Shown: one piece after another, positions 48,266 to 55,775 of the stretch
Layout of the letters: every line of letters starts with the position of its first letter
Position numbering within the stretch: position 1 is the stretch's first letter
From: a bacterium
GTDB taxonomy: Bacteria; UBA8248
Direction: 5' to 3'
Assembly: GCA_965204535.1 (NCBI GenBank)
Contig: OZ241996.1
Coordinates: 852,335 to 916,334, forward strand
Length of the DNA: 64,000 bases
The notes under the pieces: generated by a model
The model's database searches: none
What the model saw: only the letters and a program-made list of their open reading frames with translations
What the model was told of the DNA's origin: nothing
Program-made: the position numbers and the translations under genes

Positions 48266-48585
48266 CTAGTTCCTCTAGCTAGAGATATAGTTGCCCATGA
48301 ACCTCGTATGTGGACGCGCCAGTTGATGCAAACATGTCGCCTGAAATTTCGGGGCAGTGAATAGTCGCAGTCGTATAATGGTCCGATGTGAATTAAACAG
48401 TGGGGTGAGCGCGGCTTAAAAAGCATCAGCTCAAACCGACTAAGCCACACAAAATCAATAAATGCCTCCGGCATTAGGGACAATATCACCACGTGACCGA
48501 ATGATTACCGACAGTCGTAAGCGTTCGGGCGGGCCGTGATGGTAGTGCCTTGAAGCAGTAGTTCGGGCCGGAATGGGGGATGATT

Positions 48586-49458
48586 TTACCGGTTGAGGAC
48601 TTGCTTCCAGTTTCTGCGCAACGGTCGTAGCCAGATGTCCTTTTTCGGTTGGTCTCGTTTCGTGTATCTGTCGTAGCGTCCACGCCCCTGGGTCATACCG
48701 ACGTGAATCCACCCCGATGCCCTGTAGACGGCGCCGGTGTAGCGCGGCGTCTCGACGAAGGTCTCGACGAGGACGGGTGTCGTGCCATAGCGCTCGGTCC
48801 AGTCCTCGGGCAGGCGCCTGCGGATGATGGCGAGGAGGTGTGAGCCGAGGTTGAGGATCCTGATCCATGGCAGGATGAGGAACCTCGGGTTGTCGACCAC
48901 GAGGGGGAGGTTCTTCTCGCGCAGCTGCGGCGTCCAGCCGATGAAGCTGTCGCGCGGGGCGAGCTTCCACGCGGCGGTGGAGAAGCCGAGCATGGCGAGG
49001 GGCCTGCCGCCCCGGTCGTGGACGGCGTAGCGCATCTGCGCGCCGACGAGGGTCTTGTAGCCGAGGTAGTGGTAGCGGGCGACGAACTCGTTCCAGAGCC
49101 TGCCCTCGCGGGTTCCGCGCACGGCGACGCGCATATCGAGGGGGCGGACTTCGTCGAGGGTCTCAGGCGCCGGGATGAGGGGAGGTTCGGTGTCGGGTCC
49201 GAAGACGATCGGCCCGGGCCGGTTCTGGCGCCACTTCGGTGGGGGCAGCGTGATCAGGCCGTCCTTGTGCATGGCCAGCATAGTCACCCGGGCCATCATG
49301 TCCTTGAGTCCGCCGTCGGGCTTGTACCAGCCGATTCGGCGGCAGAACTCCTTCGATAGCGCATGGCGGTTGAGCGCAGGTGGACCTGCGATCAGTTCGC
49401 GCAGCAGCGCCATCTCTTCCGTCGTGAAGTCGCGTCCGTGGTAGCGGCACTCGGTCAC
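48586..49458 (-). CDS. DUF4338 domain protein (DruA-like domain) carried inside the IS
   Basis: The 290-aa product has the C-terminal motif RYTGAVYRASGWIHVGMTQGRGRYDR, as I recall for DUF4338. It starts 4 nt after the transposase stop. Confidence 0.6.
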   Translation of the reverse strand: MTECRYHGRDFTTEEMALLRELIAGPPALNRHALSKEFCRRIGWYKPDGGLKDMMARVTMLAMHKDGLITLPPPKWRQNRPGPIVFGPDTEPPLIPAPETLDEVRPLDMRVAVRGTREGRLWNEFVARYHYLGYKTLVGAQMRYAVHDRGGRPLAMLGFSTAAWKLAPRDSFIGWTPQLREKNLPLVVDNPRFLILPWIRILNLGSHLLAIIRRRLPEDWTERYGTTPVLVETFVETPRYTGAVYRASGWIHVGMTQGRGRYDRYTKRDQPKKDIWLRPLRRNWKQVLNR

Positions 49459-49462
49459 GGCG

Positions 49463-51817
49463 TCATCCCGGCGCCGTGAGGGCGCGCCTGCGCTCCGTGC
49501 TCATCGACCAGGGCAGCCACGCGGAGAGGTCCCCGGGCGCCCGGCCGCCGTTCTCCGCGCAGGCCGTGAGCCATGCCTCCAGCCAGCGGAGCGGGTCGAC
49601 CCCGTTCGACGCGAGGGTTCCGAGGACCGAGTACATCATCGCCGTAAACCTGGCGCCGGCCTCGCTGTCGGAGCCGAACGAGAGCCGCCTGCCGATCACA
49701 GGGCCCCGAAGCGCACGTTCGCTGGCGTTGTTATCCATCGGCACCGAGGGGCGTTCGATGAAGACGCTCAGCCCCTCGCGGTGGTTCAGCAGCGAGCGAA
49801 GCGCCTTGCCCTCGCGCGCCTGCGCGGGCAGAGCGGCCATCTCCCGTCGGGCCTGCGCGAACAGGTCCTTGAGCGCCTTCTTCAATTCGTCGTGCGCCGC
49901 GTCGAACGCCGCATCCTGGCGTTCGACGCCCGGGTCGTAACTGGCCAGGCGCGCCTCGTTCAGGCGGTAAAGCAAGGCAATCCGCTCGATCCATCTCTCG
50001 CACCACGGCGTCAGCCGCTCATCGCCGGCGGCGCAGTGGATATAATCGCGCCGGACGTGACTCCAGCACCATGCGAGAGTCACCAGACCCCCGGGAATGC
50101 GCGCCAGCTTCTTGTAGGCGCTGTAGCGGTCGCAGACGATGACCGTATGGGAGCCGGCCGCGCCGAACAGCTTCATCGCGACCTCAGCACTCCGCGAGGG
50201 GTCGACGTGGAAGTAGACGGAGTCTGCGCTGACCGAGGTCCACAGCCAGGCGCGGCTCGAGCGTCCTTGTTCGCGAAGCGACTGAACGCGCCACGTCGTC
50301 TCGTCCCCGTGACGCACCGCCGCTTCGTTCTGGCGGTCGAGGATCGCCGCAGCCAGCGGCTCGAAGAGCGGCGTGAAGCGGTGCGTGCTGTCGCCCAGTG
50401 TGCCTGCAGAGACCGGAAGCCCCTGGTCGGAGAGCCACGCGGCGACCCGGCGCAGCGGGCGGAAGCAGGCGTAGCGCTCGAACAGGAAGCGCGCCCACAC
50501 GCTCGTCCCGTAAGGCGTGCCCGCGAACAGGCGCGGCGCGGCGGGCGCCGACACTTCCACCGGAGACGACGCGCACGCGCATCTCCTGCGCCATCTCGGA
50601 CGGCGGATGACGCGCTTGTGGGCCGAGACTTCGATCTCGAAGATGGAGGAGACCTCGGCGCCATTGGCCACGTAGGGCTTCCCGCAACCGGCGCAGACGC
50701 GCGCACCGGCCGGCGGGTTGCGAACTTCGGTCCTCTCATCGAGCGCGGGCCGCGGGGTGCGGCCATGACCGGCGGCGCCGGGTTGCCGGCCGCGCCTGCG
50801 CTCCGAGCGCGGCCTCTCCTGCCGTTCGCTCTTGCGCCCGAACAGTCTTCTCGCCAGCACCGCTCCGGTGGCGCGAAGCTTCGCGAGATCGGCCTCCAGC
50901 CGCGCCCGGATGGTCTCTGACTTGCGGAGCGCCCTGCGAAGACGCCCGTTCTCCCTCGACAGCGACCTGAGCGCCGTCTTCTGGCGCCGCGACCTCCCCA
51001 GGGCCTTGCGCAGTTCCTCATCTGCACGAGACGGCGACTTCGAGCGCGCCGCCTCGAGAGCGCGCAGCAACCGCGCCTTCAGCCGTTCGGTCGCAATGCC
51101 TACGGCCCCCAGGGAGACTTCAAGACGGTAGACCTCCGCAGACAGCGACTCGACCACCTCCGCCTGGTCGCGCAATCGCCTCAACTTCCTGTAGAGCCCG
51201 ATGGCCTCCTCGTCCAGGCTCCGAATGGTCTCCTTGTCGGTCGCCGACTTCTGCTTCTCCAGGGCCAGACGATCTTCGAGCCGGGCAACTTCCTTCTCCC
51301 GCCGGCCGACCTCCTTGCGCAGGGCATGAATCGTCTCCTTGCGCTCCTCCAGGGCCTTGCGCAGCCGCCCCGCCTCCCCCGGCGACGGCACGCCCGAGAG
51401 CTCCTTGCGAAGCCGGACGACCTCCATGCGCAGCGACATGAGCGGGCTGCGCTTGCGCGGATCGACCCCCGCCTCCGCAAGCAGCTTCTCCAGCCGCGCC
51501 ACTTCCGCCTTGAGCGACAGCGCGTCCTTCGCCGCGCGGCGGGCTTCCTTCGCCTCCCCGGCGGCCGCCTCGAGCTTCTTCCGGCTGGCGTCGAGATGCC
51601 GCTTCAGCTTGCCCGCACGGGAGCGGGAATCCACTTCCGCCCAACGCAACTCCTCGCAGCGCGCCTCCGCCGCCTCCGCGCGCGCACGCTCGCGCTCGTA
51701 CAGCGAACGCCAGTACGCCTCTGCGGTTGTGGACAACCCGGGGGAATGAGGCCATGGCTCATCCGGCCTCTCGGCCAACGCCAACTCCGTCTCGACAGCT
51801 TCTGCGCGAATCTTCAT
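49463..51817 (-). CDS. IS66-family transposase (TnpC-like) with an unusually long N-terminal coiled coil
   Basis: Features are the Zn finger CAGCGKPY, DDE region motifs HGDETTWRV, VCDRYSAYK and CWSHVRRDY, plus DNNASERALR and the C-terminal VDPLRWLEAWL. About 380 aa of Arg/Glu/Leu-rich heptad-like sequence precede these. Confidence 0.85.
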   Translation of the reverse strand: MKIRAEAVETELALAERPDEPWPHSPGLSTTAEAYWRSLYERERARAEAAEARCEELRWAEVDSRSRAGKLKRHLDASRKKLEAAAGEAKEARRAAKDALSLKAEVARLEKLLAEAGVDPRKRSPLMSLRMEVVRLRKELSGVPSPGEAGRLRKALEERKETIHALRKEVGRREKEVARLEDRLALEKQKSATDKETIRSLDEEAIGLYRKLRRLRDQAEVVESLSAEVYRLEVSLGAVGIATERLKARLLRALEAARSKSPSRADEELRKALGRSRRQKTALRSLSRENGRLRRALRKSETIRARLEADLAKLRATGAVLARRLFGRKSERQERPRSERRRGRQPGAAGHGRTPRPALDERTEVRNPPAGARVCAGCGKPYVANGAEVSSIFEIEVSAHKRVIRRPRWRRRCACASSPVEVSAPAAPRLFAGTPYGTSVWARFLFERYACFRPLRRVAAWLSDQGLPVSAGTLGDSTHRFTPLFEPLAAAILDRQNEAAVRHGDETTWRVQSLREQGRSSRAWLWTSVSADSVYFHVDPSRSAEVAMKLFGAAGSHTVIVCDRYSAYKKLARIPGGLVTLAWCWSHVRRDYIHCAAGDERLTPWCERWIERIALLYRLNEARLASYDPGVERQDAAFDAAHDELKKALKDLFAQARREMAALPAQAREGKALRSLLNHREGLSVFIERPSVPMDNNASERALRGPVIGRRLSFGSDSEAGARFTAMMYSVLGTLASNGVDPLRWLEAWLTACAENGGRAPGDLSAWLPWSMSTERRRALTAPG

Positions 51818-51929
51818 GCCGACATCATTAGCACATGTCGAATCGCGTTACCAGTCGCCCGGGAAAATTCTATCCGATGGAGGCGATGCGCCCGGCGCCG
51901 GGTCCATCACGGCCCGCCCGAACGCTTAC

Positions 51930-51937
51930 CGACAGTC
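51930..51937. repeat. 8-bp spacer cgacagtc between the two IS66 copies, identical to the outer flanking repeats
   Basis: cgacagtc occurs at 48509-48516, 51930-51937 and 55351-55358. IS66-family elements make 8-bp target duplications. Confidence 0.9.
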
Positions 51938-52006
51938 GTAAGCGTTCGGGCGGGCCGTGATGGTAGTGCCTTGAAGCAGTAGTTCGGGCCGGAATGGGGG
52001 ATGATT

Positions 52007-52879
52007 TTACCGGTTGAGGACTTGCTTCCAGTTTCTGCGCAACGGTCGTAGCCAGATGTCCTTTTTCGGTTGGTCTCGTTTCGTGTATCTGTCGTAGCGT
52101 CCACGCCCCTGGGTCATACCGACGTGAATCCACCCCGATGCCCTGTAGACGGCGCCGGTGTAGCGCGGCGTCTCGACGAAGGTCTCGACGAGGACGGGTG
52201 TCGTGCCATAGCGCTCGGTCCAGTCCTCGGGCAGGCGCCTGCGGATGATGGCGAGGAGGTGTGAGCCGAGGTTGAGGATCCTGATCCATGGCAGGATGAG
52301 GAACCTCGGGTTGTCGACCACGAGGGGGAGGTTCTTCTCGCGCAGCTGCGGCGTCCAGCCGATGAAGCTGTCGCGCGGGGCGAGCTTCCACGCGGCGGTG
52401 GAGAAGCCGAGCATGGCGAGGGGCCTGCCGCCCCGGTCGTGGACGGCGTAGCGCATCTGCGCGCCGACGAGGGTCTTGTAGCCGAGGTAGTGGTAGCGGG
52501 CGACGAACTCGTTCCAGAGCCTGCCCTCGCGGGTTCCGCGCACGGCGACGCGCATATCGAGGGGGCGGACTTCGTCGAGGGTCTCAGGCGCCGGGATGAG
52601 GGGAGGTTCGGTGTCGGGTCCGAAGACGATCGGCCCGGGCCGGTTCTGGCGCCACTTCGGTGGGGGCAGCGTGATCAGGCCGTCCTTGTGCATGGCCAGC
52701 ATAGTCACCCGGGCCATCATGTCCTTGAGTCCGCCGTCGGGCTTGTACCAGCCGATTCGGCGGCAGAACTCCTTCGATAGCGCATGGCGGTTGAGCGCAG
52801 GTGGACCTGCGATCAGTTCGCGCAGCAGCGCCATCTCTTCCGTCGTGAAGTCGCGTCCGTGGTAGCGGCACTCGGTCAC
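52007..52879 (-). CDS. DUF4338 domain protein (copy 2)
   Basis: Translation is identical to 48586-49458. Confidence 0.6.
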   Translation of the reverse strand: MTECRYHGRDFTTEEMALLRELIAGPPALNRHALSKEFCRRIGWYKPDGGLKDMMARVTMLAMHKDGLITLPPPKWRQNRPGPIVFGPDTEPPLIPAPETLDEVRPLDMRVAVRGTREGRLWNEFVARYHYLGYKTLVGAQMRYAVHDRGGRPLAMLGFSTAAWKLAPRDSFIGWTPQLREKNLPLVVDNPRFLILPWIRILNLGSHLLAIIRRRLPEDWTERYGTTPVLVETFVETPRYTGAVYRASGWIHVGMTQGRGRYDRYTKRDQPKKDIWLRPLRRNWKQVLNR

Positions 52880-52883
52880 GGCG

Positions 52884-55238
52884 TCATCCCGGCGCCGTGA
52901 GGGCGCGCCTGCGCTCCGTGCTCATCGACCAGGGCAGCCACGCGGAGAGGTCCCCGGGCGCCCGGCCGCCGTTCTCCGCGCAGGCCGTGAGCCATGCCTC
53001 CAGCCAGCGGAGCGGGTCGACCCCGTTCGACGCGAGGGTTCCGAGGACCGAGTACATCATCGCCGTAAACCTGGCGCCGGCCTCGCTGTCGGAGCCGAAC
53101 GAGAGCCGCCTGCCGATCACAGGGCCCCGAAGCGCACGTTCGCTGGCGTTGTTATCCATCGGCACCGAGGGGCGTTCGATGAAGACGCTCAGCCCCTCGC
53201 GGTGGTTCAGCAGCGAGCGAAGCGCCTTGCCCTCGCGCGCCTGCGCGGGCAGAGCGGCCATCTCCCGTCGGGCCTGCGCGAACAGGTCCTTGAGCGCCTT
53301 CTTCAATTCGTCGTGCGCCGCGTCGAACGCCGCATCCTGGCGTTCGACGCCCGGGTCGTAACTGGCCAGGCGCGCCTCGTTCAGGCGGTAAAGCAAGGCA
53401 ATCCGCTCGATCCATCTCTCGCACCACGGCGTCAGCCGCTCATCGCCGGCGGCGCAGTGGATATAATCGCGCCGGACGTGACTCCAGCACCATGCGAGAG
53501 TCACCAGACCCCCGGGAATGCGCGCCAGCTTCTTGTAGGCGCTGTAGCGGTCGCAGACGATGACCGTATGGGAGCCGGCCGCGCCGAACAGCTTCATCGC
53601 GACCTCAGCACTCCGCGAGGGGTCGACGTGGAAGTAGACGGAGTCTGCGCTGACCGAGGTCCACAGCCAGGCGCGGCTCGAGCGTCCTTGTTCGCGAAGC
53701 GACTGAACGCGCCACGTCGTCTCGTCCCCGTGACGCACCGCCGCTTCGTTCTGGCGGTCGAGGATCGCCGCAGCCAGCGGCTCGAAGAGCGGCGTGAAGC
53801 GGTGCGTGCTGTCGCCCAGTGTGCCTGCAGAGACCGGAAGCCCCTGGTCGGAGAGCCACGCGGCGACCCGGCGCAGCGGGCGGAAGCAGGCGTAGCGCTC
53901 GAACAGGAAGCGCGCCCACACGCTCGTCCCGTAAGGCGTGCCCGCGAACAGGCGCGGCGCGGCGGGCGCCGACACTTCCACCGGAGACGACGCGCACGCG
54001 CATCTCCTGCGCCATCTCGGACGGCGGATGACGCGCTTGTGGGCCGAGACTTCGATCTCGAAGATGGAGGAGACCTCGGCGCCATTGGCCACGTAGGGCT
54101 TCCCGCAACCGGCGCAGACGCGCGCACCGGCCGGCGGGTTGCGAACTTCGGTCCTCTCATCGAGCGCGGGCCGCGGGGTGCGGCCATGACCGGCGGCGCC
54201 GGGTTGCCGGCCGCGCCTGCGCTCCGAGCGCGGCCTCTCCTGCCGTTCGCTCTTGCGCCCGAACAGTCTTCTCGCCAGCACCGCTCCGGTGGCGCGAAGC
54301 TTCGCGAGATCGGCCTCCAGCCGCGCCCGGATGGTCTCTGACTTGCGGAGCGCCCTGCGAAGACGCCCGTTCTCCCTCGACAGCGACCTGAGCGCCGTCT
54401 TCTGGCGCCGCGACCTCCCCAGGGCCTTGCGCAGTTCCTCATCTGCACGAGACGGCGACTTCGAGCGCGCCGCCTCGAGAGCGCGCAGCAACCGCGCCTT
54501 CAGCCGTTCGGTCGCAATGCCTACGGCCCCCAGGGAGACTTCAAGACGGTAGACCTCCGCAGACAGCGACTCGACCACCTCCGCCTGGTCGCGCAATCGC
54601 CTCAACTTCCTGTAGAGCCCGATGGCCTCCTCGTCCAGGCTCCGAATGGTCTCCTTGTCGGTCGCCGACTTCTGCTTCTCCAGGGCCAGACGATCTTCGA
54701 GCCGGGCAACTTCCTTCTCCCGCCGGCCGACCTCCTTGCGCAGGGCATGAATCGTCTCCTTGCGCTCCTCCAGGGCCTTGCGCAGCCGCCCCGCCTCCCC
54801 CGGCGACGGCACGCCCGAGAGCTCCTTGCGAAGCCGGACGACCTCCATGCGCAGCGACATGAGCGGGCTGCGCTTGCGCGGATCGACCCCCGCCTCCGCA
54901 AGCAGCTTCTCCAGCCGCGCCACTTCCGCCTTGAGCGACAGCGCGTCCTTCGCCGCGCGGCGGGCTTCCTTCGCCTCCCCGGCGGCCGCCTCGAGCTTCT
55001 TCCGGCTGGCGTCGAGATGCCGCTTCAGCTTGCCCGCACGGGAGCGGGAATCCACTTCCGCCCAACGCAACTCCTCGCAGCGCGCCTCCGCCGCCTCCGC
55101 GCGCGCACGCTCGCGCTCGTACAGCGAACGCCAGTACGCCTCTGCGGTTGTGGACAACCCGGGGGAATGAGGCCATGGCTCATCCGGCCTCTCGGCCAAC
55201 GCCAACTCCGTCTCGACAGCTTCTGCGCGAATCTTCAT
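52884..55238 (-). CDS. IS66-family transposase (copy 2)
   Basis: Translation is identical to 49463-51817. Confidence 0.85.
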   Translation of the reverse strand: MKIRAEAVETELALAERPDEPWPHSPGLSTTAEAYWRSLYERERARAEAAEARCEELRWAEVDSRSRAGKLKRHLDASRKKLEAAAGEAKEARRAAKDALSLKAEVARLEKLLAEAGVDPRKRSPLMSLRMEVVRLRKELSGVPSPGEAGRLRKALEERKETIHALRKEVGRREKEVARLEDRLALEKQKSATDKETIRSLDEEAIGLYRKLRRLRDQAEVVESLSAEVYRLEVSLGAVGIATERLKARLLRALEAARSKSPSRADEELRKALGRSRRQKTALRSLSRENGRLRRALRKSETIRARLEADLAKLRATGAVLARRLFGRKSERQERPRSERRRGRQPGAAGHGRTPRPALDERTEVRNPPAGARVCAGCGKPYVANGAEVSSIFEIEVSAHKRVIRRPRWRRRCACASSPVEVSAPAAPRLFAGTPYGTSVWARFLFERYACFRPLRRVAAWLSDQGLPVSAGTLGDSTHRFTPLFEPLAAAILDRQNEAAVRHGDETTWRVQSLREQGRSSRAWLWTSVSADSVYFHVDPSRSAEVAMKLFGAAGSHTVIVCDRYSAYKKLARIPGGLVTLAWCWSHVRRDYIHCAAGDERLTPWCERWIERIALLYRLNEARLASYDPGVERQDAAFDAAHDELKKALKDLFAQARREMAALPAQAREGKALRSLLNHREGLSVFIERPSVPMDNNASERALRGPVIGRRLSFGSDSEAGARFTAMMYSVLGTLASNGVDPLRWLEAWLTACAENGGRAPGDLSAWLPWSMSTERRRALTAPG

Positions 55239-55775
55239 GCCGACATCATTAGCACATGTCGAATCGCGTTACCAGTCGCCCGGGAAAATTCTATCCGATG
55301 GAGGCGATGCGCCCGGCGCCGGGTCCATCACGGCCCGCCCGAACGCTTACCGACAGTCACACTCAGGGATACGCAGACGTTAGATTTTCCTTGTTTCCGT
55401 TTTGATTACTTTCTGTAGTAGACGACTTCGAGACGAGATAGAGGATAATGAATCTTTCTCAATGATATCAATACGATAGAAATATTTTACAGCCACCGGA
55501 AATCCCCCACTGCCTGAAAACACGCGAAAGACTGGTGAATCAAGGAACTGAGCGTCCGGGCTAGCCTACACCCGATGTAGAAAACCCATAATCCAAGTAC
55601 AAACCTAAAAAAGCTAGCAGCAAACCCGTGGCCAAGGCGAATGTGACCTAGACGAAGATGAGCGACCTTCCAAAGATAGCAGGGCGCTAGTCTTTAGGAA
55701 TAGACAGGTTCTGGTTACGTCCTTTAGCGGGCAAGAAAACACAATACAGTCGCTTTTCACATTCAAGACGTAAAA

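Follow-up and report, generated by a model that had tools for sequence, protein, structure and literature searches.

A two-gene IS66-family insertion sequence whose GNAT-domain protein may be a partner of the transposase

We describe an insertion sequence (IS) of the IS66 family at positions 48517-51929 (3413 bp) of a 64,000-nucleotide stretch of bacterial DNA (UBA8248; GCA_965204535.1, contig OZ241996.1, positions 852,335 to 916,334 of the forward strand), which we call the window. The element has two genes, both on the minus strand: tnpC, encoding the transposase, and a second gene encoding a 290-amino-acid (290-aa) protein with the PF14236 domain (DUF4338, or DruA domain). Since the second protein is predicted to contain a GNAT fold, we refer to its gene as the GNAT gene. 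It is very probable that this is a two-gene IS66-family element of which the GNAT gene is an obligate part. As to function, we favor the reading that the second protein works together with the transposase as its partner rather than being cargo, and put the probability of this at about 0.55. A PF14236/GNAT protein acting as the partner of a transposase looks undescribed in the literature that we found.

Architecture and recent activity of the element

TnpC matched the transpos_IS66 model NF033517 with 286 bits (cut-off 180), and all 387 positions of the model were covered by residues 345-752. The terminal inverted repeats begin GTAAGCG and enclose both genes (Table 1); a match to the 26-bp repeat was found in none of 100 shuffles (0 expected). 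Ends that begin GTAAGCG and a target duplication of 8 bp are typical of the IS66 family as described in ISfinder. The non-coding room in the element amounts to 86 bp upstream of tnpC and 43 bp downstream of the GNAT gene, and there is therefore no tnpA or tnpB inside it. The element is 62-73% G+C, the surrounding island is 40-50% G+C and the genome average is 60%. A scan for sigma-70 promoters across the element and the junction of the two copies found no site.

The initial annotation of this DNA, made from the sequence alone, had proposed an IS66 element without tnpA and tnpB in which a PF14236 gene lies inside the inverted repeats, and the profiles, the repeats and the lack of room bear this out. 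Its coordinates, 48586-51817, placed both open reading frames (ORFs) correctly; the whole element, however, extends beyond them on both sides and is the first unit of a dimer. The 784-aa TnpC with a long heptad-like arm was also found as described, except that the arm ends near residue 335 and not at residue 380.

Canonical IS66 elements (IS66, IS679) carry tnpA-tnpB-tnpC, and an ordinary TnpC has a short leucine zipper at its N-terminus. The present element resembles canonical IS66 in its transposase core, in the kind of terminal repeat and in how long the target duplication is, but it has neither TnpA nor TnpB, and this absence places it with the tnpC-only (ISBst12-like) elements. IS66-family elements that carry tnpC alone (the ISBst12 group, in Geobacillus and Deinococcus) do transpose (PMC8024623, PMC12898284). 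The element has in common with this group an IS66-type DDE enzyme and the lack of tnpA and tnpB, and it differs in adding the obligate PF14236/GNAT gene and a coiled-coil arm of about 335 aa. Within the arm, heptad periodicity was seen in two segments (residues 141-252 and 253-336), with two breaks that contain Pro or Gly. Its length differs greatly among relatives, in which the aligned stretches of TnpC range from about 600 to about 850 aa. Dimerization, spacing or tethering are candidate roles for the arm.

The genome (4.56 Mb in 2 contigs, 95.7% complete) contains 13 copies of the element, scattered over its sites and intact in their ORFs and ends; 12 of them show 100% identity and one shows 96%. 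The second gene lies inside the true ends of the IS in every copy, and most separate insertion sites have a clear 8-bp duplication of their own. Neither TnpB_IS66 (PF05717) nor the MZB/DUF1998 domain of DruE-type helicases (PF09369) was matched anywhere in this genome, while control genomes did match both. The identical copies, together with the absence of PF05717 and PF09369, point to a recent burst of transposition without TnpB or a Druantia component. The element is thus an intact, recently active IS that multiplied with only its own two proteins and host factors. Decayed fragments of an older relative (71-81% identity) are present in the same genome at C2:1578710-1579291 and C2:1592854-1593037, which suggests that the lineage of the element was resident or arrived more than once.

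Table 1. Features of the element and its tandem copy (window coordinates).
Feature	Position	Strand	Remarks
290-aa PF14236 (DUF4338/DruA-domain) protein, GNAT gene	48586..49458	-	Pfam E 2.1e-38
Gap between tnpC stop (TGA) and GTG start of GNAT gene, 4 nt	49459..49462	-	GGGA/GGAT Shine-Dalgarno-like motif upstream
tnpC, 784-aa IS66-family DDE transposase	49463..51817	-	PF03050 DDE_Tnp_IS66, E 1.6e-56
Part of tnpC matching NF033517 (residues 345-752)	49562..50785	-	CxxC...CxC zinc-finger-like motif at residues 375-415
N-terminal arm of tnpC (residues 1 to ~335)	50813..51817	-	67% Arg/Ala/Glu/Leu/Lys, segmented coiled coil
Target-site duplication, first copy, CGACAGTC	48509..48516	.	sequence was read directly; the same 8 bp recur at 51930-51937 and 55351-55358
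Terminal inverted repeat GTAAGCGTTCGGGCGGGCCGTGATGG, end downstream of GNAT gene	48517..48542	.	perfect 26-bp repeat, 4 occurrences in window
Terminal inverted repeat, end upstream of tnpC	51904..51929	.	perfect 26-bp repeat
8-bp spacer between tandem copies, equal to target duplication	51930..51937	.	
Second element copy, identical, head-to-tail (GNAT gene 52007-52879, tnpC 52884-55238)	51938..55350	-	
Target-site duplication, third copy	55351..55358	.	

Three of the ten insertion sites in the genome hold head-to-tail dimers with spacers of 8-9 bp (window 48509-55358, C2:366268-373101 and C2:592780-599614). In the C2:592780 pair, two 8-bp duplications that are shifted by 1 bp make up, as their union, the 9-bp spacer (TCGTGTCGA), and the second copy is therefore a separate insertion beside the end of the first. 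The spacer of the C2:366268/369689 pair (ACCGACAG) is not derivable from a simple two-insertion model. Among relatives of the element, a trimer with identical 17-bp spacers (L029:3513-12864), a dimer with a 9-bp spacer (L055:1236-8074) and a head-to-head pair (L089:3670-3770) were seen, and at L065:2520-6300 two variants that differ from each other adjoin, the spacer between them being a copy of the element's own tip. An assembly artifact or homologous recombination as the origin of such tandem dimers was ruled out for the C2:592780 pair by its union spacer, and for locus L065 by the abutting of two different variants. A second full copy was present within 6 kb at 13 of the 79 related loci described below. 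It seems that elements of this family land at the ends of resident copies or next to them.

Pairing of the GNAT gene with transposases

A search that covered one genome per prokaryotic species returned 79 related loci, and in every one of them a TnpC homologue ends a few bases upstream of the GNAT gene. The loci belong to metagenome-assembled Alpha- and Gammaproteobacteria, a Bryobacterales genome and unclassified bacteria. Across these distant lineages the second protein is 81-97% identical, which suggests that the element was transferred recently between them, probably in one habitat. The Gammaproteobacteria (among loci L013-L091) include Pseudomonadales and Candidatus Azotimanducaceae. In 51 genomes of the phylum, each clade TnpC that is intact and could be paired by coordinates adjoins a PF14236 match (about 12 of these lie outside the present genome); the paired cases include sets of two to three identical TnpC copies in other genomes of the phylum.

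The two genes are also closely joined. In most relatives tnpC and the GNAT gene overlap in the sequence ATGA, while the present sub-lineage has a 1-nt deletion and a GTG restart 4 nt downstream. The initial placing of a 290-aa DUF4338 ORF 4 nt after tnpC was correct (TGA to GTG start). Judging from these sequences, translation of the GNAT gene appears to be coupled to that of tnpC. The ratio of non-synonymous to synonymous substitution rates (dN/dS), measured against 41 distinct relatives, was 0.13-0.26 for the GNAT gene, 0.21-0.47 for the catalytic part of TnpC and 0.41-0.93 for the coiled-coil arm. The GNAT gene is the most constrained part of the element, and evolution of the arm is nearly neutral. 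Since dS was similar in all three, the GNAT gene, the catalytic part and the arm evolve as one unit.

One possibility for the role of such a gene is cargo, that is, a GNAT protein that modifies DNA or another component of the cell on behalf of the vehicle or the host, as in Mom-like anti-restriction, which would shield DNA that leaves the cell and enters new hosts, or in defense of the sort assumed for DruA. The position of the window copy within a low-GC island is consistent with this. Cargo genes, however, are normally variable and dispensable, whereas this gene stands beside every intact clade transposase examined and, in an element of which the genome has 13 copies, is under stronger constraint than the transposase. 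The other copies in the genome lie at scattered sites, the gene appears to be coupled in translation to the transposase, and other families have it as a fused part of the transposase polypeptide. We consider cargo unlikely, though it is the leading alternative.

A working partnership with the transposase is the reading that relatives with other transposases favor. A homologue at 39% identity on a Thiodictyon plasmid led to a sister group with more than 7900 database homologues. In this group (about 37-40% identity) a gene of about 293 aa overlaps by 4 nt the start of a gene for a 456-aa Tn5-like transposase (domains PF14706, PF01609 and PF02281) in 10 of 10 complete places examined, and the Tn5-linked contigs, of 2.4-3.4 kb, look like whole elements. 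These genes are like that of our element in family, in length and in tight coupling to a DDE transposase; they differ in the transposase family and in the reversed gene order, with the GNAT gene first. ISAs1-type transposases (PF13808, PF01609) on another Thiodictyon plasmid and on a metagenome contig begin with a fused GNAT core that lacks the N-terminal domain, and so these fusions differ from our element both in the transposase family and in the loss of that domain. About 70 positions are invariant between the IS66-linked and the Tn5-linked groups. In a small tree of uncertain root and with long branches, each of the following was monophyletic: the IS66-linked proteins, the Tn5-linked proteins (to which the ISAs1 fusion is sister), the long-form DruA proteins, and Mom.

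Two further arrangements of the domain were observed. On the Thiodictyon plasmid NZ_CP020372.1 (L011:5001-8203), a stand-alone 292-aa PF14236 gene lies just upstream of genes for a tyrosine recombinase and an IS91-family (Y2) transposase, and this cluster interrupts a DUF2235 gene, which it splits. The arrangement may represent one more kind of partnership or no more than nested insertions. At L123:2856-4076, a 406-aa ORF is pieced together from a PF14236 fragment, the N-terminal domain of ISAs1 and the C-terminal end of an IS66 transposase, apparently as a mosaic that arose from such elements inserting into each other.

Fold of the second protein and its relation to DruA and Mom

The 290-aa protein matched PF14236 with 132.6 bits (cut-off 27), which supports the assignment to DUF4338 made initially; the match takes in no more than positions 45-226 of the 297 in the profile. 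An AlphaFold2 model based on 36 homologues (score 77 in pLDDT, the predicted local distance difference test) consists of an N-terminal domain (residues 1-70, a beta-hairpin and three helices), an ill-defined linker and an alpha/beta domain at about residues 105-285. With this model Foldseek returned 66 PDB matches at E <= 0.001, and the best 50 of the 66 were almost all GNAT acyltransferases; 1vhs (4e-6), SpeG and NAT10 were among them. A profile search of the second-protein family against PDB sequences gave nothing meaningful. The Foldseek result agrees with the published statement that DUF4338 is a GNAT domain (PMC10853773), and the alpha/beta domain of the second protein, as modeled, is a GNAT fold. 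The initial annotation had described DUF4338 as a domain whose biochemical role is unknown, and in the light of this fold that is not wholly so. GNAT proteins have a cofactor loop that follows strand 4 (canonically Q/R-x-x-G-x-G/A) and, in motif B, a Tyr that acts as general acid; in this family the loop reads x-x-x-N203-L-G/A-S206, with a variable first position, and Y245 is invariant. We do not call the N-terminal domain a winged helix because it had no significant PDB matches.

The GNAT domain could in principle be a scaffold, the second protein being a non-catalytic regulator that binds the ends or the transposase and so damps transposition or sets its timing, in the manner of Tn5 Inh or IS1 InsA. 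The small helical N-terminal domain, which is confidently folded in the prediction, would fit this role, as would translation coupled to tnpC and the variable first position of the cofactor loop. We nevertheless regard it as improbable: groups with 38% identity have about 70 invariant positions in common, including the counterparts of residues on which Mom activity depends, the N-terminal domain has no significant match to DNA-binding folds, and the ISAs1 fusions drop this domain and keep the GNAT core.

The second protein had been labeled as DruA-type. It does share the PF14236 domain, but the likeness is distant and holds at the level of the domain only. Type I Druantia DruA has in common with it the central Pfam part (profile positions 45-226), whereas the transposon protein is about 90-110 aa shorter, has different N- and C-terminal parts and falls in a separate clade; the element has no DruB-E, and tnpC is the only neighbor of the gene inside it. 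Two genomes of the same genus encode long-form DruA-like proteins of 377-398 aa that match the whole Pfam model (369-399 bits). One of these (from genome G034) scored 361 bits against the PADLOC DruA model and the 290-aa protein scored 21.8 bits (E 2e-5), and the two kinds of gene lie in different operons. Membership in Druantia was ruled out by this 21.8-bit score, the partial Pfam coverage and the absence of PF09369 from the genome. The transposon form is, at the sequence level, a distinct short subfamily of PF14236. The long-form DruA-like gene is followed by a gene for a NurA-like nuclease (L092:176-2535, genome G016), and at L122:13142-17272 (G034) by a gene for a HerA-like ATPase as well; neither is followed by a transposase gene. 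This three-gene arrangement is not canonical Druantia and may be a separate defense system. That long-form members of the family are of a defense type, DruA-like and beside NurA-like and HerA-like genes in the same genus, is a point in favor of cargo.

The closest characterized relative of the second protein is probably Mom of phage Mu (PF25680; PDB 8bv8). Mom is a Gly-tRNA-dependent adenine-N6 modifier of double-stranded DNA and an anti-restriction enzyme (PMC13219725), a function that would also be in keeping with cargo. Weak matches to PF25680 were obtained for 19 of 36 family members, all below the cut-off (best E 2.8e-4), and other Pfam families were matched by a few members only. In a fold search of viral proteins, a Mom protein of a Salmonella phage ranked 11th (E 3e-6), behind small uncharacterized viral proteins. 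Against the single Mu Mom sequence, hhalign aligned only a 17-residue motif B, whereas the profile-profile comparison with 30 Mom homologues aligned 152 columns across the whole GNAT domain. In that alignment H130-Y131, W198, N203, S206 and Y245, all invariant in the transposon family, pair with H48-Y49, W103, N111, S114 and Y149 of Mom; a VY.AS motif and the basic C-terminal tails also align. Likeness to Mom thus comprises the GNAT fold and the aligned HY and W...N..S motifs, and the differences are the extra N-terminal domain of the 290-aa protein and a context that is a transposon and not a phage late operon.

Several of the paired residues are known from work on Mom itself. H48, Y49, S114 and Y149 are H58, Y59, S124 and Y159 in the numbering of PMC13219725, which is that of the sequence record plus 10. 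The variants H58A, Y59A, R111K and Y159A had strongly reduced activity and R151A had none that was detectable; the structure was solved as the S124A variant, and an HTH-like (helix-turn-helix-like) insertion at about residues 175-209 is essential for activity (PMC13219725). For R111 and R151 the 290-aa protein has nearby counterparts only (R192 and R239). Because the counterparts of Mom-critical residues are conserved, we infer that the second protein is catalytically active. It is a divergent GNAT protein; membership in the Mom family was ruled out by the sub-threshold scores and the missing HTH-like insertion.

The GNAT toxins TacT and AtaT acetylate charged tRNA, and a toxin or addiction module of this kind might stabilize the element. 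GNAT toxins that act on aminoacyl-tRNA do exist and Mom uses Gly-tRNA (PMC13219725), but the element has no room for an antitoxin gene, its 13 copies are tolerated by the genome, and the protein has no sequence match to toxin families. A toxin is therefore very improbable.

A putative partner of the transposase

In the mechanism that we propose, the second protein would be synthesized coupled to TnpC, and its small N-terminal domain would probably bring it to the transposition complex; where this domain is missing, the GNAT domain would be brought there by its direct fusion to the transposase. Within the complex the second protein would catalyze the transfer of an acyl or aminoacyl group. If Mom is taken as the model, a DNA base at the element ends or the target site could be the target, and the protein may thus act on DNA, although a protein or a tRNA is also possible as the target. 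Our strongest argument for placing the second protein in the transposition complex is that members of its family are fused to transposases. The initial annotation had suggested an accessory factor that handles DNA. The accessory role is supported indirectly by the pairing, the selection and the partnerships with other transposases; DNA handling is conjectural, and the N-terminal domain has no significant structural match.

Several points weigh against a working partner of the transposase. We found no experimental link between any PF14236 protein and transposition. Strong constraint would be equally expected of a beneficial cargo gene, and TnpC may suffice for transposition since tnpC-only ISBst12 elements transpose. 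The GNAT cofactor loop of the second protein is only partly canonical, and a PDB search with the N-terminal domain modeled alone (pLDDT 88) gave no significant structural match. The second protein is weakly linked to Mom (E 0.005 and a probability of 7% in hhalign): the 290-aa protein of the window has no match to the Pfam Mom family PF25680, and the HTH-like insertion of Mom is absent from it, aligning to a gap in hhalign. Our literature search found no description of PF14236/DruA-like genes in transposons, nor of DUF4338 with IS66; ISfinder lay outside this search, and an uncommented entry may exist there.

It could be speculated, as a doubtful extension of these data, that PF14236 is a Mom-like nucleic-acid-modifying GNAT domain that unrelated families of DDE transposons (IS66-like, Tn5-like and ISAs1-like) took up as an integral subunit and that marks DNA, with the same chemistry in DruA of type I Druantia. 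If so, insertion sequences would chemically mark their ends, their target or an intermediate during transposition. To our knowledge, DDE insertion sequences have few accessory proteins, and most of these are regulators that bind DNA. A partner that resembles an enzyme, if the reading is right, would be a new component of transposition biology; its gene exceeds the transposase in conservation, spreads from one bacterial class to another and is found again with at least three transposase families.

The transposon version may also offer an approach to DruA, for whose role in type I Druantia we found no description in the literature, as it is a two-protein system with a simple read-out (the frequency of transposition) and candidate catalytic residues. 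Should the similarity to Mom extend to its chemistry, DNA modifiers carried by transposons may be present in many bacterial genomes.

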